Virus record (IMG/VR): IMGVR_UViG_3300045988_157791
DNA from: a virus
Lineage: Duplodnaviria > Heunggongvirae > Uroviricota > Caudoviricetes
Length of the DNA stretch: 64,000 bases
Strand: one strand, 5' to 3'
The notes under the pieces: model-generated
The model's database searches: none
Told to the model about the DNA's origin: nothing
The model's input: the letters and a program-made list of their open reading frames with translations, nothing else
Position numbers and translations under genes: made by a program
In this document: positions 1-54,844 of the stretch, in pieces
Layout of the letters: each line of letters opens with the position of its first letter
Position numbering within the stretch: position 1 is the first letter of the stretch

Positions 1-54
1 ACCGCTGACATCCTGCTTACAAGGCAGGCGCTCTACCAACTGAGCTAAACCGGC
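1..54 (-). tRNA. tRNA-Thr (anticodon UGU), 3' part cut by window edge
   Basis: Reverse complement reads GCCGGTT-TA-GCTC-AGTTGGTA-GAGC-G-CCTGC-CTTGTAA-GCAGG...; anticodon loop gives UGU. Differs from the host thr tRNA I recall, so probably phage-encoded. Confidence 0.75.
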
Positions 55-58
55 AATT

Positions 59-145
59 TGGTGGGGAGTGATGGAGTCGAACCACCCGAGTCGCAATGAC
101 AGTAGATTTACAGTCTACCCCGCTGCCCCTACGGACTAACTCCCC
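59..145 (-). tRNA. tRNA-Tyr (anticodon GUA), class II with long variable arm
   Basis: Reverse complement GGGGAGT...GTAGA-CTGTAAA-TCTAC...GGTGG-TTCGACT-CCATC-ACTCCCC-A-CCA; anticodon stem-loop, T-arm and acceptor stem pair correctly. Confidence 0.75.
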
Positions 146-150
146 TAAAT

Positions 151-225
151 TGGCGATGGTGGGTGGATTCGAACCACCGACCAGTTGGTTAACAGCCAAC
201 TGCTCTACCGCTGAGCTACACCATC
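151..225 (-). tRNA. tRNA-Asn (anticodon GUU)
   Basis: Reverse complement GATGGTG-TA-GCTC-AGCGGTA-GAGC-A-GTTGG-CTGTTAA-CCAAC-TGGTC-GGTGG-TTCGAAT-CCACC-CACCATC-G-CCA; complete cloverleaf. Confidence 0.85.
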
Positions 226-1003
226 AATTCAGCACTGCCAGTATTTATTACTCAACAGTGCCAATCGCGACGGTTTAGTTTCTGCCAGGAAACGCACCGC
301 TACTTGCACTTTTCGTTAGTGCCAGACGCTTTCGACTTCGCTCAATAGTAGAAGGCAAAATCTTTAAGTAGATGATGTTTCTGAGGACAGCACCTACTTT
401 GTAATTTATACAATGTGATGTATGGAATCATTTGTTGTGAAAACAGGCACCAATGGCAACAGTGGTTAAACCTACACAACAATCCTGTCTTCACAACGTT
501 GAGGCCACTACTCCGATTGAATGTTTGCCCAACATGTTACATATCAACGCTCGCCGGTATCTCTGTGAATAGAACCTTAGAATTGATAAAAATGTAATGG
601 CCTCAACGTTGTGTGCTGGCTAACCATACCAGCCGGGCTACGTCGCCGCCTTTTAACCCAGTATAAACGACATAATTGAACAAAATGACGTAACAGGATG
701 GGCGGTCAGTGGCTAAGAATCCGGGAGTCATATGGAGTTGAAAATATACCAACCGCCCATTCTGTTACTTCATCGGAGGGAACATGAATGTTCCCTCCTG
801 CGTTCTGCAATCACACTCGCTCAGTGTGTCCCATTTCGGTAACGAGGCTGGAAACTGACCTCGCTGGTGTTTGGCTTATTAGGCTACTGCCAGATAGACT
901 TCTTCGTTTGCACTTGTATTTAAGTTCAAACAGTCGCGTCTCAACGAAAACAAAGTCATCTTATACATAAAAGATAAGTAAGTAAATACTTATCATTGTA
1001 TTT

Positions 1004-1294
1004 TTATTCGGTTGTGACTTTTTTGATCAAGGCCACTCTACGACTAGGTGTTCTTGTGATGGTGGCAGTGAATCGTTTCGCTTGGATAGTAATGGTTTCG
1101 TTCTCCTTAAGTTGCCCGTAGCGAGTTTCCACCAGGGTGCCAAGACGCCACAGACCATCATCGATACGTTTATGACTAGCAAATTTAATCAGCAACAGTT
1201 TTACGACTAACTGACCTACGTAAAAGGCGAATGCGACTCCGGCCGCTAAGAAATAGGTGGCCAACCACCATTCCCAAGAAGTTAAATTGCTCAT
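1004..1294 (-). CDS. hypothetical small membrane protein (96 aa)
   Basis: ORF with N-terminal hydrophobic helix (WWLATYFLAAGVAFAFYVGQLVV); AAGGTG ribosome-binding site upstream of ATG. Confidence 0.5.
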   Translation of the reverse strand: MSNLTSWEWWLATYFLAAGVAFAFYVGQLVVKLLLIKFASHKRIDDGLWRLGTLVETRYGQLKENETITIQAKRFTATITRTPSRRVALIKKVTTE

Positions 1295-1439
1295 TTTTTC
1301 ACCTTTGTTTCATGAACTACCCGATACACACGCTTTCCGATGCACAGTGTTTTGGTTTTAAGTTCCTGCTTAATTAAATCACGACAGATGCCGAAGCCGA
1401 TAAGGAAGCCACCCATAAAAGCTAATGAGATGTATGGAA

Positions 1440-1655
1440 TCATTTTAACACTCCTGATTCTACTAATTGCTGTAGCAATACTTTCCCTTTATCAGTTAAC
1501 TGGTAGTTGGCCGAACACCACGTTTCAGAAACGTTTGCAACCAACCCTAAACGCTCTAACTTAGCTCGCGTTTTAGGCTTCCAGTACTCAGGGAACTCCG
1601 GCCACTTACTGATTTCATGAAGCGTTTCCTTCTCCCGTTTACTTAATACGATCAT
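1440..1655 (-). CDS. hypothetical protein (71 aa)
   Basis: AAGGAG ribosome-binding site 5 nt upstream of ATG; start overlaps the stop of an unlisted upstream small ORF. Confidence 0.5.
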   Translation of the reverse strand: MIVLSKREKETLHEISKWPEFPEYWKPKTRAKLERLGLVANVSETWCSANYQLTDKGKVLLQQLVESGVLK

Positions 1656-1818
1656 CCTTAATCTCCTTCAGGGTGTTGGTTATTTCTACAATGCGATAAA
1701 TACGACCGCGTCTTTCTATAACACCGCTTTTAATGTAGTCATTGATGCAACTGGACATCACCACAATACCTATGAAAAAACCAACTGCTAAAAATGCAAT
1801 CATCCAGCCGAGCATCAT
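1639..1818 (-). CDS. unlisted 59-aa membrane protein, translationally coupled to ligase
   Basis: Hand translation gives MMLGWMIAFLAVGFFIGIVVMSSCINDYIKSGVIERRGRIYRIVEITNTLKEIKDDRIK; its ATG overlaps the ligase TGA (ATGA) and its stop overlaps the next start. Below the 60-aa cutoff of the ORF track. Confidence 0.4.
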   Translation of the reverse strand: MMLGWMIAFLAVGFFIGIVVMSSCINDYIKSGVIERRGRIYRIVEITNTLKEIKDDRIK

Positions 1819-3137
1819 TCTTTATCTCCGATTCGATCTTCTGTATCGCGTAAGCAACGCGGCCATTTCAGTCGTGGGTGGCGTAAGCTGCCGTCCGGTG
1901 TTTTCTCGTGACAATGAACCTCGACAATACGACCACGGTACTTCTCTTTGTTGTTCCAGATCTCATCCAGATATTTATGCTTAATGCCGCTCGCACGAAC
2001 GATGACGCCGTTTTCAAGACGAATAACAATTTTTCCAAGTGTGTTGGCAAAACCAGAGTCCGGGTCGCCCGGCTCAAAGTCGATAATTTCACCATCTTCT
2101 GAATCTTCGTCTTTTAACTTCCACCAGCTGCGGGTACGTTTAAACTCGTAAACAGAGTTCGGATCTTTGCCCATCTCCCCTTCTTCGTTATCGTCCAGGC
2201 GTTTCATGAAGCGTTCGATGAAGTCTTCGTGGCTATGGATGATATAGAACGGATGCAGGTGAATGTCTTGTGTGTAGCCTTCACTGCGATCGTTTTTGAA
2301 CAACGCCACGAGAATAGCCAGGCGCTCTTTCAGCTTCATACCTGTCTTTGCATATTCTTTGGATTTAGCCTGTGCCCGCCATTCCGGTAGGAAGAAGTCG
2401 AAAACATGATAAATAGCGCCAATTGCCTGCACGTTCTTTTTGCGCAATGCAGATACGGACTGGTTAAATGAACCGGCTGTTCCTTCACCATCGAAGAAGA
2501 TGTGTTTGTGGCCTGAAAGTTTGCCTAATTCGAGCATGGCTGGCTTTAGGTGATCGAGAGACGTGATTGGATTACCAGTACGAGAAAGGAAGTTCACCTC
2601 TTCCTCGTCAACAATAACCTCACAAATTACTCGCAAACCATCGAGCTTAAGGCTGCCAATCATCGGCCATTTGGCTTTAGGATTTGGCTTGAAGGGGTAT
2701 TTGTCGCCTTTTTCTTTATACGGTGACGCCAGCTGCACCTCAAATTTCGGAATGGGATTTTCAAAAACCTTGTTGCATAGGCTAATCCCAACGCCAGCTT
2801 TCGGATCTTTTAAGAGGAAACGACGGAACACGTCCTGCCCATCGGCGCACATTGACGCCACGATAGACTCAACAGCAGCTATTGCTGCGTTCCCCGTCAG
2901 CTCGCGAGAGGCCAGCTTATTCAGTATATCAATGGCTTTTTCGTCACTTGGGACGGACTCACTAAGCGGCTCTGCCACTTTGTATTTCTTTACCCCAAAA
3001 CGGATGAAAGGGTTGAGCATCAATGAAACCATGCTTTGCTCGAAGTCATCCATGTTGGCCAATGCCTCTTTTTTTGCATTGGTTCCCATAGCTTTCATTT
3101 CGTCCAGCTTATGCTTAAGTGCGATCAACTTTTTCAT
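1815..3137 (-). CDS. ATP-dependent DNA ligase
   Basis: Adenylation motif I KxDGxR present as SLKLDGLRVI; 440 aa, size typical of phage ATP-dependent ligases. Confidence 0.75.
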   Translation of the reverse strand: MKKLIALKHKLDEMKAMGTNAKKEALANMDDFEQSMVSLMLNPFIRFGVKKYKVAEPLSESVPSDEKAIDILNKLASRELTGNAAIAAVESIVASMCADGQDVFRRFLLKDPKAGVGISLCNKVFENPIPKFEVQLASPYKEKGDKYPFKPNPKAKWPMIGSLKLDGLRVICEVIVDEEEVNFLSRTGNPITSLDHLKPAMLELGKLSGHKHIFFDGEGTAGSFNQSVSALRKKNVQAIGAIYHVFDFFLPEWRAQAKSKEYAKTGMKLKERLAILVALFKNDRSEGYTQDIHLHPFYIIHSHEDFIERFMKRLDDNEEGEMGKDPNSVYEFKRTRSWWKLKDEDSEDGEIIDFEPGDPDSGFANTLGKIVIRLENGVIVRASGIKHKYLDEIWNNKEKYRGRIVEVHCHEKTPDGSLRHPRLKWPRCLRDTEDRIGDKE

Positions 3138-4528: not shown

Positions 4529-5782
4529 TTACGATAGCGCCTTAATGCCCAAAACCTTGCTTTGCAACTCCAACTGTTTGGTATACGGTTTTGCCCGATA
4601 ATAGGCTTTGATAATTTGTTCTGGCGTTGCACCGCCCGGGTCGAGTCCTTCCTCACCCAAACACGCAACTTTGACATTAAGACCGATACTGGTCAGTCGC
4701 CTGGCTGCGGCCATAGTGTTGCGTATAGCTTGCTTTTCACTATCCCACATCATGATCACATTACGTAACCCACGCGCCTTGAGCGTCAGGAACGCGCCCA
4801 ACTGATCTTCTGCATCCTGAGTGGTGTTACCAGATAGATGCATCCCGAACGTTCCTATCGGTTCCACGTAATCACGTAATGTTTCTTCATCAAAAATAGC
4901 TCGTTTAACCCCCATAACATCGAACGCCCCCTCACAGACAACTACAGTCTGTTTGCCGACCGCATTATGGCCGTTGTAGAGAAACTTACCTGAAGCTGGA
5001 AGCTGCATAGGAAAGAGGTAGCGACGTTCAGCTGTACCGGTAATGTCTCGCCCCTGAAATGTCTTCATTACCCCATCCAGATCGTAAACCGGTATCAGTA
5101 TTCGCATATCGAATATCTGTCCTTTAACCTGATCTGTATACGGATCTACATAGGCGTGCTTGCCTTCGACGCAGTATCGTAGGTCAAAATACTTTGCCAT
5201 TTCAGGCGATATGTTTCGTTCAACCAGATAGTCTGGAAGACGGCCATCTATAGGAAGTTCGTAATGACGAGGGAGTGCAAGTGGTCCCTCTAACTCGACT
5301 GTGCTTGCAAGCACTATCTCTTCTTTCTTTGGTGCCCACCCCTGGGAAAGAAGGGCGTTCTGCACATATTCCTCGAACTGTCGTCGTGATTTGCCGCTGT
5401 AGTGCTTGAGGAAGACCAGCTTATTGAACTGAATCTCTTCGGGATGATCACCAGCGAAGCATTTACCGACGCCACTGGTCAGATTGAAATATACCTTCCA
5501 GTTGGAGCTGCCGCATACCGGACACTCCTTGATATTCACTTCACGACCGCGAGCACTCACGCCTCCACGTCGATAAACGATACCTTCAGTGTCCAACCAT
5601 TGTTCAAAATCTAATTCGGTAATTAGCTCTTTCAGCTCGCTCACGATAATTCCACTTTTAATAGGCAATATTGTGACCAACCTAAATGTTGATATAACAT
5701 AAAGGCTCATGTGTTTTTCTTTTGTGGTTTGGCAAAAGAAAAGTTGTTTCACCAATGAATCAAGCGTGGAGGCGTTCTCCAC
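4529..5782 (-). CDS. DNA primase (zinc-binding plus TOPRIM, DnaG/T7-like)
   Basis: CPVCGSS...KCFAGDH zinc-finger-like segment and TOPRIM motif VVVCEGAFDVMG. True start probably the internal ATG near 5710. Confidence 0.65.
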   Translation of the reverse strand: MENASTLDSLVKQLFFCQTTKEKHMSLYVISTFRLVTILPIKSGIIVSELKELITELDFEQWLDTEGIVYRRGGVSARGREVNIKECPVCGSSNWKVYFNLTSGVGKCFAGDHPEEIQFNKLVFLKHYSGKSRRQFEEYVQNALLSQGWAPKKEEIVLASTVELEGPLALPRHYELPIDGRLPDYLVERNISPEMAKYFDLRYCVEGKHAYVDPYTDQVKGQIFDMRILIPVYDLDGVMKTFQGRDITGTAERRYLFPMQLPASGKFLYNGHNAVGKQTVVVCEGAFDVMGVKRAIFDEETLRDYVEPIGTFGMHLSGNTTQDAEDQLGAFLTLKARGLRNVIMMWDSEKQAIRNTMAAARRLTSIGLNVKVACLGEEGLDPGGATPEQIIKAYYRAKPYTKQLELQSKVLGIKALS

Positions 5783-5791: not shown

Positions 5792-7132
5792 TTAGGTAAC
5801 GTCTAAGATTCGCTCAATGAAGCGCATTTGTTCGAGGTTTTGTTTAACGCGAATGCTGATCCCTCCCTGCTGGTTACGTGAACCAGCAAAGTAGAGACGA
5901 GCCTCTCCTTTCGCTTCTTCTTCTTCTGTTTTGTTGATCGTTATTACCAGGTCAGCAATACGTACTTTTTCGATGTTGTCGGCAGCGTGCATCATTGTGG
6001 CAACTTCTGACGCGCCACCTTCACGGTTTGTTTGCGATGCTGTGATACCAGCAACGTTGTGTTTGTCATAAAGAGCACGTAAGTCGGTATAGATACTACG
6101 TATGTTGGCGCGATCATCACGAAGGTCATAACTGGCACGCATCAAATCTGCATAGTCGACAACAACCATGTCAGGCACCATGCCATTGGCTTTCATGCTG
6201 TTAAGCATACGATCCAGATCTGCCGGTGACATACTTCCTGACGGACGCTCAACAACCCACAAACTACCAATCCCCTTCGTGGCTCCCAACTCTGCCAACT
6301 TACGATGAACTTCATCGCGCCGTTCCACCAACTTGGACATTTCCGTCTCCGACAATCTTGCATCAAAGCGGTCGGACAAAATGTTGGTGTGAACCTCCAG
6401 CGAGAGATACAGAACATTGTAGCCAGCAAGCGTTGCGTTTATGGAAAACTCACCCATTGCGGTCGATTTACCGGATTTAGCGAACCCCATGAAGAGCACC
6501 ATTTCACGCTTCGCCCAGCCTTTTTGGTACAGCAACCTATCGAGCAGAGGGAGTCCAGTTGTAATGCTGTTTGGCACATACTCCTCTGAAGCCTCATATT
6601 CACGCGCTTTCAATCGCTCACTTGCGGAGGTGTAGTAGTCATAGATTCCGGTCGCTTCGTTCGAGCCTATCTGCTGAACCTTGGCCATGATTGCCATCGC
6701 CCCCTGAAAGTCGCCCTTCTCTTTCAGTTCAGCAGCTTTAATCAGAGCATCATCAAACGCTACACTTTTTGCGAATGTGGATACCTGGTCAACCATGTAC
6801 GAGGTATCAGACAATTTTTCTGCAAGGATGCGCTTAAACGCAGCAACAACATCGGCGAATAGTTCCTCACGGATAGTCTTATCGCGTTTCGCACGCTTAA
6901 GCATATCCAGAATTGCAGATGAAGAGGGCGCGCTCTTGTACATACGGTAATAGCCCGAAACCATATTAACCAATATGGCATTGGCCGCATTGGCAAATTG
7001 GCTAGGCACAACCAGATCTCCCGCACGAGTAAGAAACTCGTGATCACGACAAAAATATGCCGTCAGTCTGTTCTGGAAATCTTCATCAAACTCTTCGGAC
7101 AGCCCGCGTCCTGTATGGCAAAGTTCGGTCAT
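5792..7132 (-). CDS. DnaB-like replicative helicase
   Basis: Walker A GFAKSGKST and DnaB-type Walker B VVVDYADLM. Confidence 0.75.
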   Translation of the reverse strand: MTELCHTGRGLSEEFDEDFQNRLTAYFCRDHEFLTRAGDLVVPSQFANAANAILVNMVSGYYRMYKSAPSSSAILDMLKRAKRDKTIREELFADVVAAFKRILAEKLSDTSYMVDQVSTFAKSVAFDDALIKAAELKEKGDFQGAMAIMAKVQQIGSNEATGIYDYYTSASERLKAREYEASEEYVPNSITTGLPLLDRLLYQKGWAKREMVLFMGFAKSGKSTAMGEFSINATLAGYNVLYLSLEVHTNILSDRFDARLSETEMSKLVERRDEVHRKLAELGATKGIGSLWVVERPSGSMSPADLDRMLNSMKANGMVPDMVVVDYADLMRASYDLRDDRANIRSIYTDLRALYDKHNVAGITASQTNREGGASEVATMMHAADNIEKVRIADLVITINKTEEEEAKGEARLYFAGSRNQQGGISIRVKQNLEQMRFIERILDVT

Positions 7133-9018: not shown

Positions 9019-9378
9019 TTAACCTTTCTTCATCAACTCTCGTTTGATTTCATCGGTACGCATCGTGACATCGGCAGCGGTGATCGCCTCATTCAATTTC
9101 ACGATGTCCTCGATTTCCTGCGGTGACTTCTCTGCCAGATGGAAAATGGCTGCTCGAATCACGTCAGAACGAGTGAACTTCTCGAAGCGAGGGATGAACT
9201 TCATCATCTCCAGCAGTTCGAAGTATTCGTCCTCCAGTGACATTGTGCGGCTTTTAATTTTCTCTTTGCCACGAGTCGGGCGTCCCTGTGGTCTGACTGG
9301 TTGGCGCAAAGGAGTTGTGTTCTTAGCCGGTGCATCAGGCTCTTTGCGCTTTGCTAGGTCACCCATTTTCATGGACAT
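9019..9378 (-). CDS. ParG-like partition/centromere-binding protein (ribbon-helix-helix C-terminus)
   Basis: Directly downstream of the ParA-like gene (start/stop abut at 9378); basic disordered N-terminus plus RHH-like C-terminal segment. Confidence 0.5.
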   Translation of the reverse strand: MSMKMGDLAKRKEPDAPAKNTTPLRQPVRPQGRPTRGKEKIKSRTMSLEDEYFELLEMMKFIPRFEKFTRSDVIRAAIFHLAEKSPQEIEDIVKLNEAITAADVTMRTDEIKRELMKKG

Positions 9379-10078: not shown

Positions 10079-10112
10079 CTGAAACAACTTGTTTTCTTAT
10101 ATGTGATATAGC
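10079..10112. promoter_or_regulatory. palindromic operator GAAACAACTTGTTTTC upstream of the parA-like gene
   Basis: Near-perfect palindrome about 35 bp upstream of the ParA start; same motif recurs upstream of terS and several accessory genes. Confidence 0.5.
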
Positions 10113-10364: not shown

Positions 10365-10634
10365 ATGTCAGCACTAAAAAAGCAGCGCATCGATTTGAGA
10401 TTAACCGATGACGATAAAAGCATCATCGAGGAAGCTGCCGCAATGTCTAACCAGAGCATTACTCAGTTTATGGTTAGCAGTGCATCTGAACGTGCCGTGA
10501 AAGTTATAGAGCAACACCGTAGACTAGTTCTGAATGAAGAATCCTGGAATCTGGTTATGGACGCTATAAGCAATCCTCCGGCACCGAACGACAAGCTGAA
10601 ACGAGCTGCTGATCGTCTGAAAAGCATGGAGTAG
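10365..10634 (+). CDS. DUF1778-type antitoxin (TacA/AtaR-like)
   Basis: MSALKKQRIDLRLTDDDKSIIEEAA... with AGGAGG ribosome-binding site before the ATG at 10365; 8 bp before the GNAT toxin gene. Confidence 0.75.
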   Translation: MSALKKQRIDLRLTDDDKSIIEEAAAMSNQSITQFMVSSASERAVKVIEQHRRLVLNEESWNLVMDAISNPPAPNDKLKRAADRLKSME

Positions 10635-10641
10635 TTTACTC

Positions 10642-11163
10642 GTGAGCAATACAACGATAGAGATTTTCTCTGGAGAGAAAGATTATGATCTAAACGGTTT
10701 TGATTGCGGCGAAGAGTCACTAAACGCCTTTTTAGCCAACCACTTAAAAAGGCAGCATGAGGGAAAAATTCTTCGTGCTTATGTGCTTTGCACTCAAGAA
10801 GAAAGGCCAAAAGTGTTAGGATATTACACTTTGTCAGGTAGTTGTTTTGAAAAGGAGTCCTTACCTTCAAGAAGCAAACAAAAGAAGGTTCCTTATCGGA
10901 ATGTTCCAAGTGTTACTTTGGGTAGGCTGGCTTTGGACAAGTCCCTTCAAGGTCAAGGATTTGGCTCAATGCTTGTAACACATGCAATGCGCGTTGTGTA
11001 CAATGCATCTCTTGCTGTAGGCATTCATGGACTTTTCGTTGAGGCGTTAAATGACAAAGCCAAGGCGTTTTATAAAAGTTTAGGCTTTATCCAGCTGGTT
11101 GGTAACAACGAGCGTTCTTTGTTCTATCCTACAAAATCTATCGAAAAATTGTTCGAAGAATAA
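10642..11163 (+). CDS. GNAT-family acetyltransferase toxin (TacT/AtaT-like)
   Basis: GNAT motif GQGFGSMLVTHAMR; classical DUF1778 plus GNAT toxin-antitoxin arrangement. Start codon is GTG. Confidence 0.75.
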   Translation: MSNTTIEIFSGEKDYDLNGFDCGEESLNAFLANHLKRQHEGKILRAYVLCTQEERPKVLGYYTLSGSCFEKESLPSRSKQKKVPYRNVPSVTLGRLALDKSLQGQGFGSMLVTHAMRVVYNASLAVGIHGLFVEALNDKAKAFYKSLGFIQLVGNNERSLFYPTKSIEKLFEE

Positions 11164-11331: not shown

Positions 11332-11583
11332 TTAATGACGCACCCACTTATCATACAACTCACGATGAACGGCAGAAGCATCTTTCTGACGTATTTTACT
11401 GCTCGTCTCATTCACCACTTTCACTGTGTTTTGAAGTCGTTTTCTGTCTTCCTGTTTTGCCTTCTCTTCCATTGCTCGTCGCGCCGCATTCCCGCCCATC
11501 GTGTAAGCGCCGACAAGAACGAAAAGAACGGCAGCCAGCGTAATCAAAGCAACTTTTAGCTTTGTCATCAGGCTGCCTAGCAT
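11332..11583 (-). CDS. small N-terminally anchored protein, possible i-spanin
   Basis: N-terminal helix LKVALITLAAVLFVLVGAY followed by a charged helical region; follows the endolysin candidate. Confidence 0.35.
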   Translation of the reverse strand: MLGSLMTKLKVALITLAAVLFVLVGAYTMGGNAARRAMEEKAKQEDRKRLQNTVKVVNETSSKIRQKDASAVHRELYDKWVRH

Positions 11584-11584
11584 A

Positions 11585-12304
11585 TTAGACCATCCCTTTC
11601 TGGTGTTTTCTTACCTGCGACCAGGCAATGAATCCTGCCACAACAATAGTGGCAATACCGAAGATGATGCGTACTGTATCCCCGCTAGAGATATGACCTT
11701 GTGCTTTATCCATAGCAGCGGAAACCTGCGGCATAACATCGGCCAGCTGCGCCAGACCAATACCTGCTGTAACAGTTGCGCCTGCAGTTTCTTTAGTTAC
11801 AGGAACAGCCTTCACGGTTTTCACCGGCTTAACAACGCCAGCTCGACGCAGACCTTCCTCAATAACTTCTGCCGCATACCAGGTGTTCAGCGTTTTTAGC
11901 GGGCCTCGGCCATTCTCGTGGCGAATGATTGCCTCAACCAAAGGTCGAAGGATGTCGTAATCATGCAGATCGATGATCATGTCTGCGGTTACACCAACGG
12001 CTTTAGACACCTCATTAATGTAGGCGTCAGTATTGTTTTCATTCGGCGGTGCCCAGCGTTCAATAACTTCACGAATGGTATCGATACTTGTGCCGTCTTT
12101 TGCGCGACGTTTATCGTGGTAGGTAATTAGAGTCACCGCCAGCGCACGAATCCCCCAAACAGGGTCTTTAAACGTGCAAAAGCGCGGTTCGTCTGGATTC
12201 GCAACCAGACCTTGCCACGGTGATCCTTTATCAAGATTACCGGGGTTATTATTACGAATGCCTCTCGGAGTCTTCATCCTTGATCTCCTGTTATTGCAGT
12301 CCAC
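11585..12304 (-). CDS. candidate endolysin / cell-wall-active protein with C-terminal membrane anchor
   Basis: RNNNPGNL motif and a C-terminal hydrophobic helix (IIFGIATIVVAGFIAWSQV); placement between two small membrane proteins. Function inferred from context only. Confidence 0.35.
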   Translation of the reverse strand: MDCNNRRSRMKTPRGIRNNNPGNLDKGSPWQGLVANPDEPRFCTFKDPVWGIRALAVTLITYHDKRRAKDGTSIDTIREVIERWAPPNENNTDAYINEVSKAVGVTADMIIDLHDYDILRPLVEAIIRHENGRGPLKTLNTWYAAEVIEEGLRRAGVVKPVKTVKAVPVTKETAGATVTAGIGLAQLADVMPQVSAAMDKAQGHISSGDTVRIIFGIATIVVAGFIAWSQVRKHQKGMV

Positions 12305-12626
12305 TTTTTACGCCATACGCGGCTAACCCCAAAAGCAGTGCGGTAATAATGAACGACGTTATTTTAGAAACAATGCCGCCAAAGAACCCACTTGAGATGG
12401 AATCTAACCGGTTAAGGAGTTTGTCCAGATTGGAGTGTTGAATACTATGTTGCGCCGGGGTCATATCACCAAAGTAGGTTTTCAGCTGATCATTGACCTC
12501 CTGGCCAATTTCTTCACGTAGCTCTTTACCTAATTTGCCAACAACCTCCCGAGCAACGATCGCGGCAATACGCTCAACTTGCTCTGTTGTAACGCCCGCC
12601 ATCTCGTTCGACATGTTTTCCTCCAT
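12291..12626 (-). CDS. small membrane protein, possible holin
   Basis: 111 aa with one C-terminal hydrophobic helix; first gene after the tail fibre; recurrent intergenic motif upstream. Confidence 0.35.
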   Translation of the reverse strand: MEENMSNEMAGVTTEQVERIAAIVAREVVGKLGKELREEIGQEVNDQLKTYFGDMTPAQHSIQHSNLDKLLNRLDSISSGFFGGIVSKITSFIITALLLGLAAYGVKSGLQ

Positions 12627-12816: not shown

Positions 12817-15800
12817 TCAGTTACTTGTTGCCCCAACAGTACCTGCAAATTTCAGCCATTGACCTGACGGACTTCTATTACTACGGTAGTGATAAACGAG
12901 GATTGCGTTTGTAATCCCACCATAGTCAGCTTTGTGTGACGTCGTTAAACGAATTGTATAATCACCGTTAGGTAGATTAAAAACTTCGATTATAGATTCT
13001 GCTAATTCTACAGCACCAAATCCCGTTATATTGTTGATACTGCCAGCATTGAATCCCATAGCATCGCCAAAGCCAATCCAATAACTTTTGCTAAACGCCC
13101 CATTTGATTTTAGGTGGCTAATGAATGCGGACAAGCTCATGCCCATATCCCCACCTGAAACAGAGGAAGTTCGCACAGTCATACTTGGAAGAGCACTGCT
13201 CTTCACATAGGAACTTAGAAGGTTTGTTACCTCTGTTTTCGTGTAAGCATTAAGGTTAGCCGCAGTCAAAGTTATATCGGCAGAGCCATCAAACGCCACA
13301 CCAGCAATTTTCCTTGCTGTCTGCAATTTTGTGGCGGTTGCGGCATTACCAGTAGTGTTCTGATTACCAGTTGTATTCACACCAGGGATTGAATCCTTAG
13401 CGGTATATACCTGCGCCCACGCTGACCATGCCGCATCAGTGGTATCTCTTCGGGAGCGAATGAAAACCGGCGCATGTGCACCGCTCGTACCACTCCAGCC
13501 AATAAGCAACTCGCCCTCACCAGCAGCACTCGCACCTTTCATGTGCAATACGTTGCCATACGTGGTCGGGTAGCTATTGTTGTACGCCTCATACATTTGA
13601 ATGCCAGCAGTGCCTTGAGTAGAGCCGCTTAACGCCGTAACTCGGCCACGAGATACCAATGTATTAATATTGATATCGCCTGAACCATCAAACTTAACAC
13701 CATTGATGTTTCTCGCTGTTTGCAACTTCGTAGCTGTTGAAGCATTACCGTTCAAACTACCATTTACGCCACCAGTCACATTTAGTCCATTACCAATTGA
13801 TACAGCACCGCTGGTATTATTAATTGTAATAGGTCGCAAACCGTTCCATGAACCTAATGTGTCTCCTGATGCTGTTAGCATGAAATATGTGTTCGATCCA
13901 TCATTACGGATAAAGAACCCAAAGCTACCGTAAGCAATGCGGAAACCATTTGCATATTTTGAAATGATCTCGCCAGAAGATGTCAAACCTCCAGATAATG
14001 TACCACCGGTAAGAGGTAATGCACCGACATCAGAGGCTGTTGGTTTGTTTTTCGTGTTATATACTCTTCGCCATCCTGGAGAATAATCTGTGCCATTAAA
14101 TACATAGATAAACTCCGCATTAGTGAGAGCACCGGAAACACTTGTCGTTGTGGCCGTTGTTATGCGGATCGTATAATTATTTGAACTACTACCGTTATTA
14201 AATACTTCTATAACAGCTCCTGCCAATGGAATAACGCCACAACCAGTTTCACTATTTGGTATGGTTGCGCTATTGGCATAGGCCCACGCACATCGAGCAA
14301 TCCATGCCTTTGTGTTAAAGGCTCCATTATTTTGCAATAACGTCACTAACTGGGCTGTTGTTATTGCTCCGCCATTACTTCCTGTAGTTAACCAACCAGT
14401 AGGAGATGCTGGGCAACCTATATTTGCTGGTGACAAGGAAATATTTGCCGAACCGTCAAACGACACCCCATTAATAGTACGCGCAGTCTGCAACTTCGTA
14501 GCAGTAGCCGCATTACCTGTTGTATTCTGATTACCAGTCGTATTAACACCTGGCAAATTAATATTTGCAGTACCATCAAAGCTCACGCCGCCGATAGTTC
14601 TTGCCGTCTGTAGTTTTGTAGCAGTTGCGGCATTACCAGTGGTGTTCTGATTACCCGTAGTGTTTACACCTGGAAGATTAATATTGGCAGAACCGTCGAA
14701 ACCAACTCCACCGATAGTTCTTGCCGTCTGTAATTTCGTTGCTGTAGCAGCATTTCCTGAAAGACTTGAAATAAATGGATGTGAACAGTAATAACCTCGT
14801 CCATTTTTAAAGTCCAAAATTATCTGTGCATTCGTACTTTCTGATAAAGGATCAGTTGCCCCCCACTTATAAGTGGTTTGACCAACTGCATAATCAGCCG
14901 TTGGAACAATCACATTTAATCCTTCCTCAGCAAAAATCTGGATAGGGAATGCTCTTGTCTCAACGTAAAATACACTACACAAATCATCATCTTTTACGCT
15001 TGCGATAATCGAGTGTATAGATCGTTCAACGGTTGAATATATTGAGAAAAAACCAACAGCATATGAACCGCGATCAGACCAACCGCCCGGCATAACAAAA
15101 CCATTAAACTCACAATTATTCATAGCGTATCCGCCAGCTGAGGAATAAGTGGTGATAACCACTCGTGAGGCTAATTCATCTGTGCCACCACCAGTTCGGC
15201 GAAAGACTACAGGATACCACTTACCGCTTACTGCATTTGCAGGAGCAGAGAAAGTGTATTTTCGCATCCCCTTTTTCTTATCCACTTCACCTTTGCTGTA
15301 AACATTAATGTTATTCAGGAAGCGGCCCTTGTCGGGGATATCAGCACCATTCTGATCCTTCTGTAGTCGTTTTTCAGCATTATCATATGCGGTCTTAACT
15401 GCTTTTGGTGTCGCGGCTAAAGATTCACTGGTGCTGTCGACAGCACTGCTAAGTTTCACAACACCTTTGGTGGTAAGGCTTGCGTCTTCCATCGCAACTG
15501 CACCGGCAATCTCTTCAGCACGATCAGCGGCAGCTTCCGCACGGGTCGCAGCGGATTCAGCAGCAGTTTTGCTCTGAGATGCAGCTGTCGCACTGCCTGC
15601 CGCCTCTGTTGCCTTCGTGGATGCCGTTGAAGCACTGCTCTTCGCTGCTGATGCCTGCTTGGTCGCCTCATCTTTTGAAGCGGATGCTGAGGTGGCTGAT
15701 GCAGACGCAGAACTTGCAGATTCAGCAGCTGCCGCCTTAGAGGAAGCAGCATTGTCTTCTGAGGTCTTTGCATTTGTTTCAGAGGTTTTTGCTGCCGATG

Positions 15801-16854: not shown

Positions 16855-16947
16855 GTTGAATATGCTCCTTGATTTGGTGGGCTATCCTTGCCCACCATAA
16901 AGTAAGTACCTACTTATTTTTACCGATGTAAATATTTTTTTCTACTA

Positions 16948-33857: not shown

Positions 33858-33930
33858 TTCTCGCTCCTACAAAAAGGGTGGGCGTATAGCCCACCCTTTA
33901 ACATAGATAACTACCTATCTACCACACTGA

Positions 33931-34806: not shown

Positions 34807-34831
34807 CTATCAATTCCCTTTGATTTAGATG

Positions 34832-35719: not shown

Positions 35720-35740
35720 AAAAATTCCTTTTGTTACTTA

Positions 35741-37315: not shown

Positions 37316-37341
37316 TTGAATAACCTTAGATAATTACTTAC

Positions 37342-41254: not shown

Positions 41255-41952
41255 GCAGCCATCTCCCCGGAAGAGATCTTCTCCGCATATGCCACAAATG
41301 CGTCTACCCCGCTTTCTCCCGTCATTTCTTCCATGTGGGCAAGCAAATCACCAACAACAATGGCAGAGCCAGCAGGAAGCGTTTTAAAGCCCAATACGTC
41401 GACAACACGTACTTCTTCCGCTGCAACTTCACGACTGATCTCGGTGTGTTCATCCTTCTGTCGTTTAGTTTCTTCGCCAAGATCGATAACTAGCGAGTCG
41501 GTGTCCATTTCTTCTGTCATACTGCCAACGAGAACATTCAACTCACGCTCTTCAAAGCCGAAAACCTCGATATCGTCCAGAACAAGCGACTCAAGCTCTT
41601 TCTGTAGCTTAATTGCATCGTAATCAATGCTGGCAAGTCGGTTATCTTCAAGGCGCTTCGCACGAACCTCGTCATCACTGAGATCATCGCGAACAATAAC
41701 CGGTACGCGCTCAAGTCCAGCAAAAATTGCAGCCTCACGGCGGCCATGACCAGTAATAATTACGTCGTTCTTATCGACCGTAATTGGCTGGTCAAATCCG
41801 CGCTTTTTAATGGCTGCGGCCAGATCTCTGATCTGCTGTTCATCATGCTTTTTGGCATTCATCTCATAGGGAATAAGATCTGCCGGGTCGCGATATACGA
41901 TTTCAAACTTTTTGGTCATTACATACGCTCCTTGTAGTAGTCGACCAGCCAC
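41251..41952 (-). CDS. ParB/Srx-like N-terminal domain protein (233 aa)
   Basis: ParB-box-like ITGHGRREAA; acidic C-terminal half. Confidence 0.6.
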   Translation of the reverse strand: MAGRLLQGAYVMTKKFEIVYRDPADLIPYEMNAKKHDEQQIRDLAAAIKKRGFDQPITVDKNDVIITGHGRREAAIFAGLERVPVIVRDDLSDDEVRAKRLEDNRLASIDYDAIKLQKELESLVLDDIEVFGFEERELNVLVGSMTEEMDTDSLVIDLGEETKRQKDEHTEISREVAAEEVRVVDVLGFKTLPAGSAIVVGDLLAHMEEMTGESGVDAFVAYAEKISSGEMAA

Positions 41953-42617
41953 ACCAGAGCCTCACCAGCGTTCTCCATTTCATTACCGGTGTTAATAGCC
42001 TGCTCTTTGATGATGTTTTTTATGGTTTCTGCAACACGATCTGACGCATCGAAAGTTACTTTGAAGCGCATGGTCTGATGTTCCGCACCCACACGTTCGG
42101 TTTTCTCTCGTTTGTCGGTATCGACAGGCTCATCACTACCACGAGACAACGCCTCCAGTGCTTCAAGGTCGATTGCCGCCTCTTTTGCTAAAACCATCGA
42201 GATTTCGTCGTCATACGGGGCGATTTCAGACAGTTGATAGTCAAGTTCTGACTGAATTTCTTCAATGAAGCGTTGCAATGCGATTTGGTCGTCTTCACCG
42301 TATCGCTCGTTGTCCACCAGTGACATCTGTTTAGCTACGACATCGCTAATTTTGCCCACAGAAAGCACCGGAACCGTTGAAATTCCTTGCTCAATAGCGG
42401 CACGCCAGCGATGTTCGCCGCCGAGGATTTCAAAAAATCCATCTTCAAGTTCACGAGCCAAAATTGGCTTAAAAAAGCCCAATTTTTCGATAGAACCTTT
42501 CAGTTTTTCAAAATTCTGCGCACCAACCGAATTGGTGTTCCAGGTATTCGGGCGAAGGTTGGCAACATCAACCTGCAAAATCGTGATTTTTACATCCATT
42601 TTATTGCTACAATCCAC
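41919..42617 (-). CDS. ParB/Srx-like N-terminal domain protein (232 aa), paralogue of the downstream gene
   Basis: ParB-box-like LGGEHRWRAA; first gene of the operon, divergent from the SF2 helicase. Confidence 0.6.
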   Translation of the reverse strand: MDCSNKMDVKITILQVDVANLRPNTWNTNSVGAQNFEKLKGSIEKLGFFKPILARELEDGFFEILGGEHRWRAAIEQGISTVPVLSVGKISDVVAKQMSLVDNERYGEDDQIALQRFIEEIQSELDYQLSEIAPYDDEISMVLAKEAAIDLEALEALSRGSDEPVDTDKREKTERVGAEHQTMRFKVTFDASDRVAETIKNIIKEQAINTGNEMENAGEALVWLVDYYKERM

Positions 42618-46442: not shown

Positions 46443-46964
46443 ATGGTTAAAGACATCACCTACGGCATACCGGCTGAAGTCTGGCCGCGAGACTACGAAC
46501 ATGCTGAAAACATACTTATGTTCTGGCGGAAGAACAACATTCCTGTAAGAGTCACGCTTGAAGACGGTCAGGTGTTTTGCATGTACGTTCAGGGGACAAT
46601 GCCTTCCCGCAATAAGCTAGATTTATGCCCGCTTCCATATGATAAAGAAAATCGTATAAGACTCCCACTTGAGCGCATTAGCACAATTGAATCAGGTGTA
46701 ATCGATGGCATTGCTCGCGAGTTCAAAGGTAGGCTAACAATACATCCAGACTATGTTGACAATCAGCCATCACGCCGTGACTTTTTTGCGATATGTCGCA
46801 AGGCTTATCAAAACGACCAATCTATAAGGGTCTACATGGCAGACGGTCGTGAAATAGAAGGGGTGTCAAGAGGCGTTGATGCTTGTCAGGTCACTCTTAA
46901 GTTAGAAGACGGCAGAAAAATACTTGTTTTCTTCGATTGGGTTGAACGAATCCTTCCATTTTAA
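46443..46964 (+). CDS. hypothetical protein (173 aa)
   Basis: ORF followed by a clear intrinsic terminator. Confidence 0.5.
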   Translation: MVKDITYGIPAEVWPRDYEHAENILMFWRKNNIPVRVTLEDGQVFCMYVQGTMPSRNKLDLCPLPYDKENRIRLPLERISTIESGVIDGIAREFKGRLTIHPDYVDNQPSRRDFFAICRKAYQNDQSIRVYMADGREIEGVSRGVDACQVTLKLEDGRKILVFFDWVERILPF

Positions 46965-52420: not shown

Positions 52421-52579
52421 ATGGACCGAAGGCTGACCGTAGGGGTGTTACGGGGGATAAAATCAGGAGTTGAATAAATACGAAAAAGGAGGCGACACCC
52501 CTCCTTCCCTCCCAACTTATACATACCTGTCTTGTTCGCTATACATGTTGTGTTTTCTTCGTGTTTTATCTGTTTCAAC

Positions 52580-53400
52580 CTCTCTATAGGCGTTAATGCT
52601 CACTCCTTCCAGAACGTTCTATACGGCGACTATTTCTGTTGGTGAATTGGGTGTGTTGTTTTCCCTGTCGGTGTATGTGGTTTCGTTCGTTTTGCGATGG
52701 TTCTTCTATGGGGTGTTCTCGTCGTTTTGGTGATTGTTCTTCTCCGTGTATGGAGTAATGGCAGGTGGGCGATTCCTTTCGTTATTGTGTTTGAGTTGTT
52801 TGTCTGGAGTGCGTGAAGGGCTTTTGTAGTTATTCGTGTATTGGGTAATGGCGTTTCCCGTGATTGTTATGTTTCGTGTCTTTTGGGATTGAGAGAAACC
52901 TTGCGGTTACAGGCTTCGTTGGGGTTTCAGTGATTCTGATGTTTCTTCGCTGTTTGGGTAATGGCGTGTCGTGGGTATCGCGCGTATGAATGTTTTCGGA
53001 TTGCCTGTGAAAGTTAGGTTGGTTGTCCGGTAGCCTGGGAAGAAGAGGTGGGTCTTTTCGGTAGCCTGCCATAAAGAGGTTGGTTGTTTTTGGTAATGGC
53101 ATATGTGTTATTTAGTTGTTTTGTTATACCTGAAAATAAGTTGTTTATATGGTTATGTAACGCAACGGGAGCGATTTTGAGCGTGTGTTTTTGTTGGTAG
53201 TGTGTTGGGTCGTCTGTGGTGAAAATTGGACGCTGTGGCGCTGTCTGCTGCGTAGAGTTACGGGTATAAGAAGTGATGTGTGAAAACGTCAATTTTTTAG
53301 ACCAAATCGGGTGAAAGCGTTGACGTTTCGTTGATCTGTTATTTAGTTGTTTTCTTATTTGTATAAACAACCATAACCTATTGATATTTAATGATGTGAT
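52580..53400. repeat. about 800-bp strongly GT-skewed non-coding region with dispersed GGTAATGGC repeats
   Basis: Plus strand is G+T-rich throughout; GGAGTAATGGCAGG, TGGGTAATGGCGTT, TGGGTAATGGCGTG, TGGTAATGGCATAT at about 100-bp intervals; minus-strand ORFs are low-complexity. Confidence 0.55.
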
Positions 53401-53489
53401 TGCTGGTATGGGAGGGGAGTAGTGGCGATCAACGGATTCTTATAGAAAAGAATCAAATTGTGACCGCCATTATCAATGAGTTGCAACCG

Positions 53490-54059
53490 TTAGTTGTTCA
53501 GATAAACATTTGGAACACGGACGTAGAAGTTCCTGTCGCCGGTAAGTTCCAGAGTAATGTTAATGTCATTACCATTGTCTAGTGTAGCCGTTGCTCTATA
53601 GAACTTATCCGTCACCTTGTCCTCTATTGTCACCTTCATACATTTTGGTGCAGTCGAACCGTTATTCTCTTTCAGAATAGTTGTCACGAGAGGGCAGGCT
53701 GCTTCTTCAAGAGCAACCTCGTCCTTGTGTGGGATGCCGATGAAGATAACCCAAGCCAGCGACGCAACGATTATGATAAATGGCACTCTGCTGCCTTTTG
53801 TAATAGTCGCGCGCTTCCAGAGATAGACAGGCAGGAGGAATACCCCCCATAGAATTGAAGGTGGTTCACAGCCAGACTCCGATAGAGCCATTCTGTCAGC
53901 TACTAACAAACCGATGGTAGTTACACCCCCAATTATAATAGCGTAATTGGTATACTCTTCCGGCGATACTCCAAAGAAGAAAGGCATGAACGCTAGAATC
54001 CACGCATAAATGTTATTCAGAGGTTTTGTTTGTTGGTTCTGGGTTTCCATCACATCCAT
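53490..54059 (-). CDS. integral membrane protein (189 aa)
   Basis: Several hydrophobic helices (IYAWILAFMPFFFG, IIIGGVTTIGLLV, LWGVFLLPVYLW, FIIIVASLAWVIFIGI) and a hydrophilic C-terminal domain. Confidence 0.5.
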   Translation of the reverse strand: MDVMETQNQQTKPLNNIYAWILAFMPFFFGVSPEEYTNYAIIIGGVTTIGLLVADRMALSESGCEPPSILWGVFLLPVYLWKRATITKGSRVPFIIIVASLAWVIFIGIPHKDEVALEEAACPLVTTILKENNGSTAPKCMKVTIEDKVTDKFYRATATLDNGNDINITLELTGDRNFYVRVPNVYLNN

Positions 54060-54211
54060 TCCATCACATAAAAATCGCGTTTATATATTATCAATTTTCT
54101 CACTTGTATAACCTAAATACGCATCCGTTTATCAATCCACCTTCCACAAACATCAGCTTTAGCTATGAAAAATAACAATCTCAAAGTGAAAACCATTATC
54201 ATAGGAAACGA

Positions 54212-54397
54212 TTAGATGAGATGGTCTAATTCATCATCTATCATTGCTTTAACACTTGAGTCATTAACCCCGTATTGATTTATGAACCGTTTCAGCTCCG
54301 GTGAAAACTGAAGGTAGATATCGTGAGCGTTTTTCACTGTAGGTTCAACGCCACGCATTTCAAGCGCCTTTAGTAGATATGAGTCTTCTTTAAGCAT
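54212..54397 (-). CDS. hypothetical small protein (61 aa)
   Basis: Short ORF downstream of 54434-54742; weak evidence. Confidence 0.3.
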   Translation of the reverse strand: MLKEDSYLLKALEMRGVEPTVKNAHDIYLQFSPELKRFINQYGVNDSSVKAMIDDELDHLI

Positions 54398-54433
54398 AAA
54401 TTCTCCGTTGTCTAGTATGAAGCGATTGCCGGA

Positions 54434-54742
54434 TTACCATTGCCAGCACTCTAGCCCTTCAACGACCGGTGCACCACAATCAAAATGTACAGAGTCAAAG
54501 CCTACATCAAGTACTTTCTGAATGTTCGCAATCGCGCCCTCGGATATACCATATCGACGCAACTCATCTTTCCAGTCATCGTCCTGTAACCCGGCGTGGA
54601 CAATGCAACCGTACTCAATTTGTGAAACCCAATCCAGCTCATTGCTTGCGATCATGAATCGGCGAGCATCTTCCTCTGATGTATGAGATGAGCTGATCAA
54701 TGCCACCTGGTAGGCTTGGGTAATGTTCAACATTTCAACCAC
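54434..54742 (-). CDS. small acidic protein (start probably MLNITQAY near 54730)
   Basis: Two operator palindromes (AAAACAAGTTGTTTT and AGAAAACAAATTGTTTT) at 54737-54802 upstream. Confidence 0.45.
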   Translation of the reverse strand: MVEMLNITQAYQVALISSSHTSEEDARRFMIASNELDWVSQIEYGCIVHAGLQDDDWKDELRRYGISEGAIANIQKVLDVGFDSVHFDCGAPVVEGLECWQW

Positions 54743-54844
54743 TCCAAAACAAGTTGTTTTCTTATGTGGTTTATTATCTCCATCAACAAAAGGCAGAAAA
54801 CAAATTGTTTTAGGTACTGTGTAAATCAGAAGGGATTGTGTCTA

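Follow-up and report, generated by a model that had tools for sequence, protein, structure and literature searches.

A 64-kb viral DNA segment with the gene content and collinearity of SSU5-supergroup phage-plasmids

The window, i.e., the whole 64,000-nucleotide stretch of viral DNA analysed here, carries tRNAs at its left end, followed by genes for replication, partition, a toxin-antitoxin pair, lysis and the virion, and, in its right-hand part, a metG-apbC block with further genes beyond it (Table 1). A first-pass annotation had noticed the tRNAs, which were confirmed as Tyr, Asn and one more cut by the edge, and had counted an own ligase, primase and DnaB-like helicase (1815-7132) among the plasmid-style functions; the genes are indeed there, with a weak match in the case of the primase, but they are phage replication genes and not plasmid maintenance functions. 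The window lacks the RepA and the iterons of the plasmid replicon: in collinear relatives, a Rep3-family RepA (Rep3_N, E 1e-10) is encoded ~21 kb to the left of where the window starts and flanked by at least 14 iterons, all of this outside the window. The iteron-like arrays previously proposed for the window did not hold up, since Tandem Repeats Finder returned arrays only within tail genes and none was found near par or the toxin-antitoxin pair; weak repeats of 28-31 nt do occur at 49.4 and 52.7-53.1 kb, where the DNA is non-coding.

Table 1. Features of the 64-kb window, with their positions, strands and the evidence or remarks attached to them
Feature	Position	Strand	Evidence or remark
tRNA cluster	1..225	-	ARAGORN; Rfam RF00005
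Partial tRNA	1-54	-	cut by left window edge
tRNA-Tyr(GTA)	59-145	-	ARAGORN; Rfam RF00005
tRNA-Asn(GTT)	151-225	-	ARAGORN; Rfam RF00005
Exact 13-mer AATGATTCCATAC	420..432	-	one arm (half-site only) of the recombinase-linked 13-7-13 site
ATP-dependent DNA ligase	1815..3137	-	PF01068, E 3e-13; PGAP and Cyrano annotation
DNA primase, DnaG-N/Toprim-like	4529..5782	-	weak, E 1.6e-5 and 4e-4; annotated primase in relatives
DnaB-like replicative helicase	5792..7132	-	PF03796 (DnaB_C), E 3e-13
119-aa ParA partner	9019..9378	-	start overlaps parA stop codon
Small ParA ATPase, 222 aa	9378..10046	-	no N-terminal HTH; ParF-like, type Ib
Palindrome AAACAACTTGTTT	10082..10094	.	36 nt upstream of parA start
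Type II toxin-antitoxin pair, AtaR/AtaT (KacAT) type	10365..11163	+	KacT in Cyrano annotation (PMC9928086)
DUF1778/TacA1 antitoxin	10365-10634	+	PF08681, E 9e-26
GNAT toxin, AtaT/KacT-type	10642-11163	+	homology to solved toxins (AtaT, E 1e-79)
Lysis cassette (holin, endolysin, spanin)	11332..12626	-	collinearity only
Virion module	12817..39230	-	tail fibre, J-like tip, I/K/L/M homologues, tape measure, tail tube, tail terminator, capsid, portal, TerL, TerS-position DNA-binding protein
ABC-type ATPase and two ParB_N-domain proteins	40589..42617	-	upstream of packaging genes; not assumed to be a partition system
FljA-family protein (repressor of phase-1 flagellin)	46443..46964	+	PF03614, E 5e-81
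Conserved non-coding, strongly strand-skewed region	52579..53489	-	weak 28-31-nt repeats
Cargo metG and apbC	54895..58186	.	diverged copy of chromosomal pair; annotated in Cyrano
Intact metG	54895-56928	-	NCBIfam MetRS, 1019 bits
apbC	57086-58186	+	cargo block
Further phage-plasmid genes	58224..64000	-	UmuD-like S24 peptidase, Pol III theta homologue, Ea22-like protein
DUF4942 protein	within 58224..64000	-	cut by window end

The lambda-like morphogenesis module, described before as complete, was confirmed in its TerL, capsid and tail genes at 12.8-39.2 kb, which include a tail tube with an Ig domain, a tape measure with the lambda C-terminal domain and homologues of lambda M, L and K, the portal being assigned by annotation. 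The lysis cassette has no Pfam match, and its genes agree in position and size with CYRAN_22-24 of Cyrano and SSU5_026-028. The virion, packaging and lysis functions expected of a phage-plasmid are in this way complete (for lysis, by collinearity only), and every structural, packaging and lysis ORF of the window has its full length when set against SSU5 and Cyrano.

Two further modules concern the maintenance of the element. The DUF1778/GNAT pair was correctly recognised in the first-pass annotation: the antitoxin lies directly upstream of the toxin, with an intergenic gap of 7 nt, and the toxin matches, over its full length, AtaT (6gts/6ajm; E 1.4e-79) and KacT (5xun/5zgn; E 1e-75). The biochemistry of AtaT, i.e., the acetylation of aminoacyl-tRNA and the neutralisation of the toxin by its antitoxin, has been characterised (PMC7595197), and the copy in the window is a homologue by sequence. 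As for the suggested ParA/ParG-like pair (9019-10046), its ParA stood, whereas its ParG was not confirmed, in the sense that no similarity of the partner to ParG or to any known centromere-binding protein is detectable. The ParA matches MipZ, AAA_31 and CbiA in Pfam and, below the cut-off, ParA_partition in NCBIfam (E 2e-33), and its best relatives among solved structures are ParF of TP228 (4dzz) and ParA 5u1g (both E 1.2e-10); it is small, of the Walker type and devoid of an N-terminal domain for DNA binding, as type Ib requires. The partner, which is kept beside ParA in pHCM2 and in Klebsiella relatives, begins with a disordered, basic N-terminal tail, after which a strand-helix-helix and two helices are predicted. 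Pfam (E <= 0.01), PHROG functions, PDB (by sequence and by profile) and Foldseek gave no support for its assignment, and the annotation of this protein in Cyrano as a “RelE/ParE putative toxin” is unsupported by Pfam. In an AF2 monomer (pLDDT 64), helices 47-59 and 69-83 are compatible with an RHH fold, of which a monomer is a weak test because RHH proteins are obligate dimers. The resemblance to ParF-ParG of TP228 lies in the ParA, closest to ParF among solved structures, and in a small, translationally coupled partner with a basic, flexible N-terminus and the predicted strand-helix-helix; the differences are the partner’s lack of detectable ParG similarity, in sequence or fold, and the lack of a repeat-array centromere, given that upstream of parA (10047-10330) a single 13-bp palindrome was found and no centromere or operator repeat array. 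The partner is a candidate centromere-binding adaptor and an unproven member of the ParG family, and the partition system expected of a phage-plasmid is present as the ParF-like ParA coupled to this putative adaptor.

To what kind of element do these modules belong? The entire 64-kb window is collinear with circular E. coli plasmids of ~106-115 kb, also beyond the stretch 1-54,800, with 99.6% nucleotide identity to pM-64-197 (NZ_MT773672), 97% identity and 92% coverage in the case of Cyrano (= pLF82, OV696614 / NC_011917), and 80% DNA identity to Salmonella phage SSU5, which covers 65% of the first 25 kb. Plasmid records cover 99-100% of the window, no chromosomal junction was found in it, and the relatives at 97-99.6% identity are complete, circular, non-mobilizable and IncFIB-typed. 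Besides full collinearity, Cyrano and pM-64-197 share with the window the ParA and its partner, the KacT/AtaT-type pair, the replication genes, the virion and lysis modules, metG-apbC, the UmuD-like protein and theta, and the differences are minor: a tRNA-Tyr versus the Ser, Thr and Asn tRNAs of the relatives, a variable slot between dnaB and par (with a GIY-YIG-like ORF at 8199-8966 in the window) and diverging tail-fibre segments. SSU5 and the S. Typhi plasmid pHCM2, which stand for the SSU5_pHCM2 group of the supergroup, have their modules for virion, lysis, ParA, DnaB, primase and ligase in the same order as the window, while SSU5 has neither a toxin-antitoxin pair at the corresponding position, nor an integrase-repressor module beside the tRNAs, nor metG-apbC. 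These comparisons, computed here together with the gene content, extend to the location of the relatives: of the 5,426 complete E. coli genomes compared, 237 carry the capsid-portal-terminase core, with 247 of 247 places on plasmids and none on a chromosome.

The SSU5 supergroup is a published phage-plasmid family (PMC7969092), and pLF82 was described as a plasmid of 108 kb in synteny with pHCM2 (PMC2941450). Might the window nonetheless derive from the packaged genome of an SSU5-like phage that is strictly lytic, and not from a resident plasmid? SSU5 was isolated as a phage, was called virulent in one report (PMC5427195) and, as mentioned, is devoid of the integrase-repressor module, but the nearest relatives of the window (up to 99.6%) all come from assemblies of bacterial genomes, where they are recorded as plasmids, and the stability genes that it carries (ParA with its partner, and the toxin-antitoxin pair) are only partly present in SSU5, which makes a lytic origin improbable. 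Less improbable, albeit still unlikely, is a phage-like plasmid that is inherited as a plasmid only and whose retained phage genes are no longer inducible. The SSU5-like plasmid p2 of K. pneumoniae gave no virions upon attempted phage induction (PMC8969562), and integrity is judged here from the visible 64 kb of ~110 kb; nevertheless, the phage ORFs in that part are full length when compared with Cyrano and the plaque-forming SSU5, SSU5_pHCM2-type elements have been detected packaged inside virions (PMC12977533) and, according to the literature on Cyrano, this 97%-identical relative is induced by ciprofloxacin, with virions 32-fold above background, and is kept at ~5.5 copies per cell (PMC9928086).

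The remaining alternative is integration into the chromosome. Of the ~70 window ORFs scanned with Pfam, none has a domain of a recombinase, excisionase or transposase, in agreement with the earlier reading, and the relatives’ integrase, used as a tblastn query, gave a best E of only 1.9 in the window. In the relatives, a tyrosine recombinase (PF00589, E 2.9e-10, above the cut-off) does lie beyond the tRNA cluster, 1.9 kb outside the left edge of the window, as the first-pass annotation had allowed for, adjacent to an HTH putative repressor, i.e., in the usual layout of integrative lysogeny, and metG-apbC looks chromosomal at first sight, so that the recombinase could be thought to insert the element with metG-apbC as host flank. 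Against this, the integrase and its regulator occupy 254 of 254 places on plasmids in the same genomes, 54.8 kb are collinear with circular plasmids, phage-type genes resume past apbC, and Cyrano has the copy number given above. Moreover, metG-apbC is 91.5% identical to all chromosomal copies versus 95-99% to 223 plasmid copies; by these comparisons, the block near 54,800 is cargo of the phage-plasmid and not a boundary of the element, which continues through both window ends, contrary to the limit previously placed at 54,800. The first-pass annotation had held that an integrase and att site immediately left of the tRNA cluster, together with uniform chromosomal coverage, would speak against a phage-plasmid; half of this applies, the gene being present in relatives, and the phage-plasmid reading still stands because the integrase is plasmid-only and persistent in the supergroup, tyrosine recombinases belonging to its persistent genome (PMC7969092) even if phage-plasmids, by a general definition, “typically lack integrases” (PMC12977533). 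A lambda-like integrative prophage was likewise rejected, the window having neither int nor xis and the 5,426 genomes no chromosomal copies. Hence, integration is already close to refuted and hardly credible.

In nine elements from six genera, a site AATGATTCCATAC-N7-GTATGGAATCATT lies 44-99 bp upstream of the recombinase gene, its arms being identical at 26/26 positions down to an Int identity of 57% and its spacers variable, although the exact-arm search that was used biases this apparent conservation of the arms. This short linked site of the relatives has the loxP-type architecture of two ~13-bp inverted elements around a 6-8-bp asymmetric spacer, and no free-standing copy of it was found in 185,579 species-representative genomes, which again disfavours an integrated prophage. 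Alternatively to a recombination site, it might serve the int promoter as an operator. The relatives’ recombinase has no phmmer match at E <= 0.01 to solved recombinases, Cre included. Besides the half-site listed in Table 1, a second copy of AATGATTCCATAC at 1432-1444 overlaps the start codon of an ORF of ~50 aa. A conserved lox-like site of this kind upstream of the recombinase is apparently undescribed in the searchable literature.

The window is thus very probably an internal segment, ~60% in length, of a phage-plasmid that belongs to the SSU5 supergroup and is of the pHCM2/pLF82 (“Cyrano”) type, and the same high confidence extends to the whole account of a low-copy plasmid in lysogeny that yields virions after induction. 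As a piece of this well-known type, the window vindicates the earlier description of a phage with plasmid-style maintenance functions, supported at the level of sequence by collinearity and by a plasmid-only core, and the element is an ordinary one, of an already described, well-known kind of E. coli virus without chromosomal insertion. As the replicon and both ends of the element lie outside the window, the extrachromosomal state of this copy is inferred from the relatives. In lysogeny, a circle of ~110 kb would replicate as a low-copy plasmid from the Rep3-family RepA with its 21-bp-phased iterons; the type Ib pair in the window (ParF-like ParA plus small adaptor) would help to keep it, the AtaR/AtaT-type pair would retain it through post-segregational killing, and the conserved tyrosine recombinase, outside the window, would act on the adjacent 13-7-13 inverted-repeat site, probably in multimer resolution, a role that is inferred, as is that of the ParA partner. 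Upon induction, the own replisome genes would be used, of which those for helicase, primase and ligase are in the window and that for DnaE is not, and the siphovirus head, lambda-type tail and lysis module would produce virions. The logic resembles that of P1, with its iteron replicon (RepA/iterons), partition (ParAB), addiction module (Phd-Doc), recombinase with a short inverted-repeat site (Cre-loxP) and theta homologue. However, P1 is a myovirus with a type Ia ParAB, its loxP has an 8-bp spacer instead of the 7 bp of the candidate site, and there is no sequence relationship between both elements.

In the right-hand part, the FljA-family gene sits in a low-GC island (44-48 kb, GC 0.38-0.40), and a minus-strand transcript of the region at 52579-53489, where relatives have no annotated CDS, would be A+C-rich and G-poor.

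The palindrome upstream of parA belongs to a wider set. In the window, at least 12 promoters of the extended -10 type carry a 13-bp palindrome, AAACAAnTTGTTT, at ~+7 to +22, among them those of parA, dnaB and terS, the 12 promoter-proximal sites being at 7152, 10082, 39271, 39296, 49316, 49801, 51454, 51938, 53134, 54747, 54798 and 61666; SSU5 has 20 sites, with the same positions conserved, and the palindrome is shared with SSU5/pHCM2 at the same promoters. This family-wide promoter/operator palindrome is, too, apparently undescribed in the searchable literature. A tentative joint reading, about which we are more doubtful than convinced, takes the palindrome as the operator of one global regulator and the recombinase with its 13-7-13 site as an uncharacterised Cre/lox-like system for multimer resolution. 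If it were true, both features could be new biology, and the palindrome regulator would couple plasmid partition to the lytic programme, like KorB or omega.

The window belongs to a member of the SSU5 supergroup, the phage-plasmids defined as such in 2021 (PMC7969092), of which pLF82, a plasmid, had already been reported in 2010 to be syntenic with pHCM2 and pMT1 (PMC2941450). In megablast searches, its first 25,000 nucleotides are covered completely and at 99.6% identity by pM-64-197 (NZ_MT773672), recorded as a 111,112-bp, circular, non-mobilizable and IncFIB-typed plasmid whose position 22,548 corresponds to window position 1, and match Escherichia phage Cyrano (OV696614; also known as plasmid pLF82) at 97% identity and Salmonella phage SSU5 at 80% identity over 65% of their length. 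Positions 25,001-50,000 and 50,001-64,000 are covered to 99-100%, at 98-99% identity, by similar plasmids. The 64 kb are thus covered throughout by plasmids of ~106-115 kb, so that the window represents a continuous internal segment of an SSU5-type phage-plasmid. The reading as a phage-plasmid, proposed in the first-pass annotation from gene content, is borne out by this collinearity with a circular plasmid and by the distribution of the capsid-portal-terminase core, which occurs at 247 places in 237 of 5,426 complete E. coli genomes, every one of them on a plasmid and none chromosomal. The lineage is carried by ~4% of complete E. coli genomes and, in comparison with ~230 close relatives, nothing in the window is unique. 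The element is an already known one, an ordinary representative of a phage-plasmid lineage that ranks among the commonest, and not a new kind of element.

The right boundary that had been set at 54,800 does not hold, since what begins there is a metG-apbC block (54895-58186), after which phage-plasmid genes continue, namely those for a UmuD-like peptidase, a Pol III theta homologue, an Ea22-like protein and a DUF4942 protein. The resemblance of metG-apbC to host DNA was probably the source of that call. The block is phage-plasmid cargo, not host flank: it is annotated inside both Cyrano and pM-64-197, and a comparison across the 5,426 complete E. coli genomes gives ~91.5% identity to all 5,430 chromosomal copies and 95-99% to 223 plasmid copies. 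It constitutes an intact second copy of metG (MetRS, 1019 bits) and apbC beside the chromosomal pair of E. coli, illustrating that housekeeping-like genes can be carried as cargo by phage-plasmids. Among the neighbouring genes, the S24 peptidase (58224-58613, minus strand) has no adjacent umuC, and the theta (HolE) homologue lies at 59089-59340 (minus strand), the DnaE of the relatives being encoded outside the window. A low-GC island at 44-48 kb contains a full-length FljA-family protein (46443-46964, plus strand; PF03614, 'repressor of phase-1 flagellin', E 5e-81), which is labelled 'transcriptional regulator' in the relatives and is replaced in SSU5, at the same position, by a shorter 'transcriptional repressor'; it could be a silencer of host flagellin or a regulator of the element. 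For neither metG nor fljA was anything found in the searchable literature that places them on SSU5-like elements or discusses a role there.

Scanning ~70 ORFs of the window at E ≤ 0.01 gave no domain of an integrase, resolvase, excisionase or transposase, and the integrase of the relatives has no tblastn match in it (best E 1.9), in agreement with the initial reading. The accompanying caveat that an integrase could lie further left, beyond the tRNA cluster, was well placed: pM-64-197 and Cyrano encode, 1,938 bp to the left of where the window begins and just past that cluster, a 367-aa tyrosine recombinase (int; PF00589, E 3e-10) adjoined by an HTH 'putative repressor'. An integrase and att site at this place, together with uniform chromosomal coverage, had been named as what would speak against a phage-plasmid; an integrase is present in the relatives, but a chromosomal location was found in none of the E. 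coli genomes. This int does not make the element integrative, because the int-regulator module (254 places in the same 5,426 genomes) is, like the core, confined to plasmids, and because tyrosine recombinases are among the persistent genes of the supergroup according to Pfeifer et al., who also noted that phage-plasmids may resolve dimers via recombinases (PMC7969092). In the SSU5-type family, then, an 'integrase' close to tRNA genes cannot be taken to mean that the element is integrated into the chromosome. Int shows no similarity to solved structures at E ≤ 0.01, and it was consequently not typed as Cre-, Xer- or lambda-like.

What could this recombinase act on? A 33-bp candidate site, AATGATTCCATAC-N7-GTATGGAATCATT, precedes the int start by 44-99 bp in nine elements from six genera, among them Escherichia, Kluyvera, Buttiauxella, Chimaeribacter and Yersinia pestis (a 108-kb contig). 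Spacer and flanks vary while the arms are invariant, a constancy that extends to elements in which Int identity is down to 57% and the regulator gene below detection, although the apparent conservation of the arms is biased by the exact-arm search used. No free-standing copy was found in 185,579 species-representative genomes, and no mention of the 13-mer site sequence was found in the searchable literature. Given its architecture and its linkage to int, we infer that site and recombinase are candidates for a Cre/loxP-like, plasmid-internal function; alternatively, the site may be an operator of the int promoter. Exact copies of the 13-mer arm are also present as half-sites on the minus strand of the window, at 420-432 and 1432-1444, sharing the 15-mer AATGATTCCATACAT; the second overlaps the start codon of a ~50-aa membrane-like ORF (MIPYISLAFMGG...). 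In the relatives and in SSU5, the 5' part of dnaE contains a further exact arm copy in antisense orientation.

Features of the window and of related elements; coordinates preceded by L refer to stretches of SSU5 (L004, L005) or of other relatives, in their own numbering
Feature	Coordinates	Basis
DNA ligase	1815-3137	domain search
Primase	4529-5782	domain search, weak match
DnaB-like helicase	5792-7132	domain search
119-aa ORF (partner of ParA)	9019-9378 (-)	start overlaps parA stop
ParA, 222 aa	9378-10046	domain search
TacA1/DUF1778 antitoxin	10365-10634	domain search
GNAT toxin	10642-11163	domain search and solved-structure match
13-mer palindromes, window	7152, 10082, 39271, 39296, 49316, 49801, 51454, 51938, 53134, 54747, 54798, 61666	
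13-mer palindromes, SSU5	L004 56, 81, 30449, 34385, 42729; 15 more in L005	
33-bp candidate site	L001 10162-10194 (1.85 kb left of window start); L007 14960-14992; L008 4226-4258; also L009-L015	

Regarding replication and maintenance, the element's own ligase, primase and DnaB-like helicase, as initially called, are all matched by domain searches, the primase weakly. The proposed ParA/ParG-like pair stands as far as ParA is concerned: ParF of TP228 and a related small ParA are the solved structures nearest to it (both at E 1.2e-10), so that it can be assigned to type Ib. The ParG likeness of the partner, however, found no support in Pfam, NCBIfam, or phmmer and profile searches against the PDB; the protein falls in phrog_5111, of unknown function, and its AF2 model (12 homologues) has a pLDDT of 64 and was uninformative when compared with the PDB by Foldseek. 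Its basic, disordered N-terminus and predicted strand-helix-helix are compatible with a ribbon-helix-helix adaptor. The label 'RelE/ParE toxin' given to this gene in Cyrano was discarded, having no Pfam support. The toxin-antitoxin pair is confirmed by the TacA1 domain and by full-length matches of the GNAT toxin to solved AtaT (E 1e-79) and KacT (E 1e-75). A functional tie between this toxin and the extra MetRS was rejected as unsupported, since AtaT acetylates several aminoacyl-tRNAs and not just Met-tRNAfMet (PMC7595197). As for the iteron-like arrays also claimed, TRF and repeat searches of the window gave tandem repeats solely inside tail genes, plus weak non-coding repeats, and nothing iteron-like near the par or toxin-antitoxin genes. 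Genuine iterons flank repA, ~21 kb left of the window in SSU5-type relatives, with at least 14 copies of CTCTCTATAGTGGATA in Cyrano, many of them in 21-bp phase, so a plasmid replicon may sit far from its par and toxin-antitoxin genes.

The sole plus-strand gene of the replication-par region (8199-8966) is related to GIY-YIG (LEM-3-like) nucleases (E 5.5e-7), and its slot differs between the window and pM-64-197 on the one hand and Cyrano on the other, which suggests a mobile or variable insertion. Directly upstream of the packaging genes, an ABC-type ATPase and two ParB_N-domain proteins (40589-42617, minus strand) are labelled 'ParB' in Cyrano and SSU5, with partition, packaging or another function as candidate roles.

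The virion module comprises, by domain search, TerL, capsid, tail terminator, an Ig-domain tube, a tape measure with a lambda C-terminal domain, and homologues of lambda M, L and K. Its description as a lambda-like morphogenesis module fits the tail tip, whereas the head is of the generic HK97 type. Three tRNAs, one truncated, are located at the left edge, as had been noted, and an Rfam search returned tRNAs only. Those at 1-225 are a type-II tRNA called Tyr(GTA), Asn and the truncated one, while the same slot (L001 11884-12131) holds Ser, Thr and Asn in pM-64-197 and Cyrano; the set is thus not constant even among near-identical relatives.

Twelve copies of the palindrome AAACAAnTTGTTT are present in the window and 20 in SSU5, against expectations of 0.5 and 0.4, respectively. 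Read along the transcribed strand, the sites begin with CCTTTT and, after ~9 nt, have the extended -10 element TGnGATAAT; a further 8-9 nt separate this from AGAAAACAAnTTGTTT, which is followed by a ribosome-binding site and ATG. The AGAAAACAAnTTGTTT sites are 5-100 nt ahead of start codons, and some promoters have another palindrome 51 or 25 bp further upstream. Since window and SSU5 carry it at the same promoters (parA, dnaB, terS and many small early genes), the palindrome marks a conserved promoter/operator class, of which no description was found in the searched literature. A role as an RNA hairpin was judged unlikely, given that such a stem would have 5-6 bp, all of them A-U. Together with the lox-like site, this class would help to explain the switching of SSU5-type elements between plasmid and phage, which is still poorly understood.

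In the life cycle that can be proposed, the element would be kept at few copies per cell (5.5 for Cyrano; PMC9928086), with replication started by a Rep3-family RepA and iterons outside the window, segregation by the ParF-like ATPase and its small adaptor, stabilisation by the AtaR/AtaT-type addiction module, and multimers probably resolved by the recombinase. DNA damage would then trigger the lytic cycle: ciprofloxacin induces Cyrano, with virions visible by qPCR and TEM (PMC9928086), and virion-packaged elements of the SSU5_pHCM2 type have been detected (PMC12977533). A phage-like plasmid that is no longer inducible has been reported for a Klebsiella relative (PMC8969562), although we consider it rather improbable that the present copy is another such case. 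An inducible element would employ its own helicase, primase, ligase and DnaE in the lytic cycle, along with the virion and lysis genes.

Finally, a conserved stretch of ~0.9 kb (52579-53489) has no annotated CDS in the relatives and is homologous to SSU5 90,403-91,656 (68% identity). It is strongly strand-skewed, a minus-strand transcript having 70-75% A+C, 7-15% G and weak structure (-0.14 kcal/nt), and contains weak direct repeats of 28-31 nt; a Rho-loading leader, a lytic origin and a low-complexity ORF are all conceivable.
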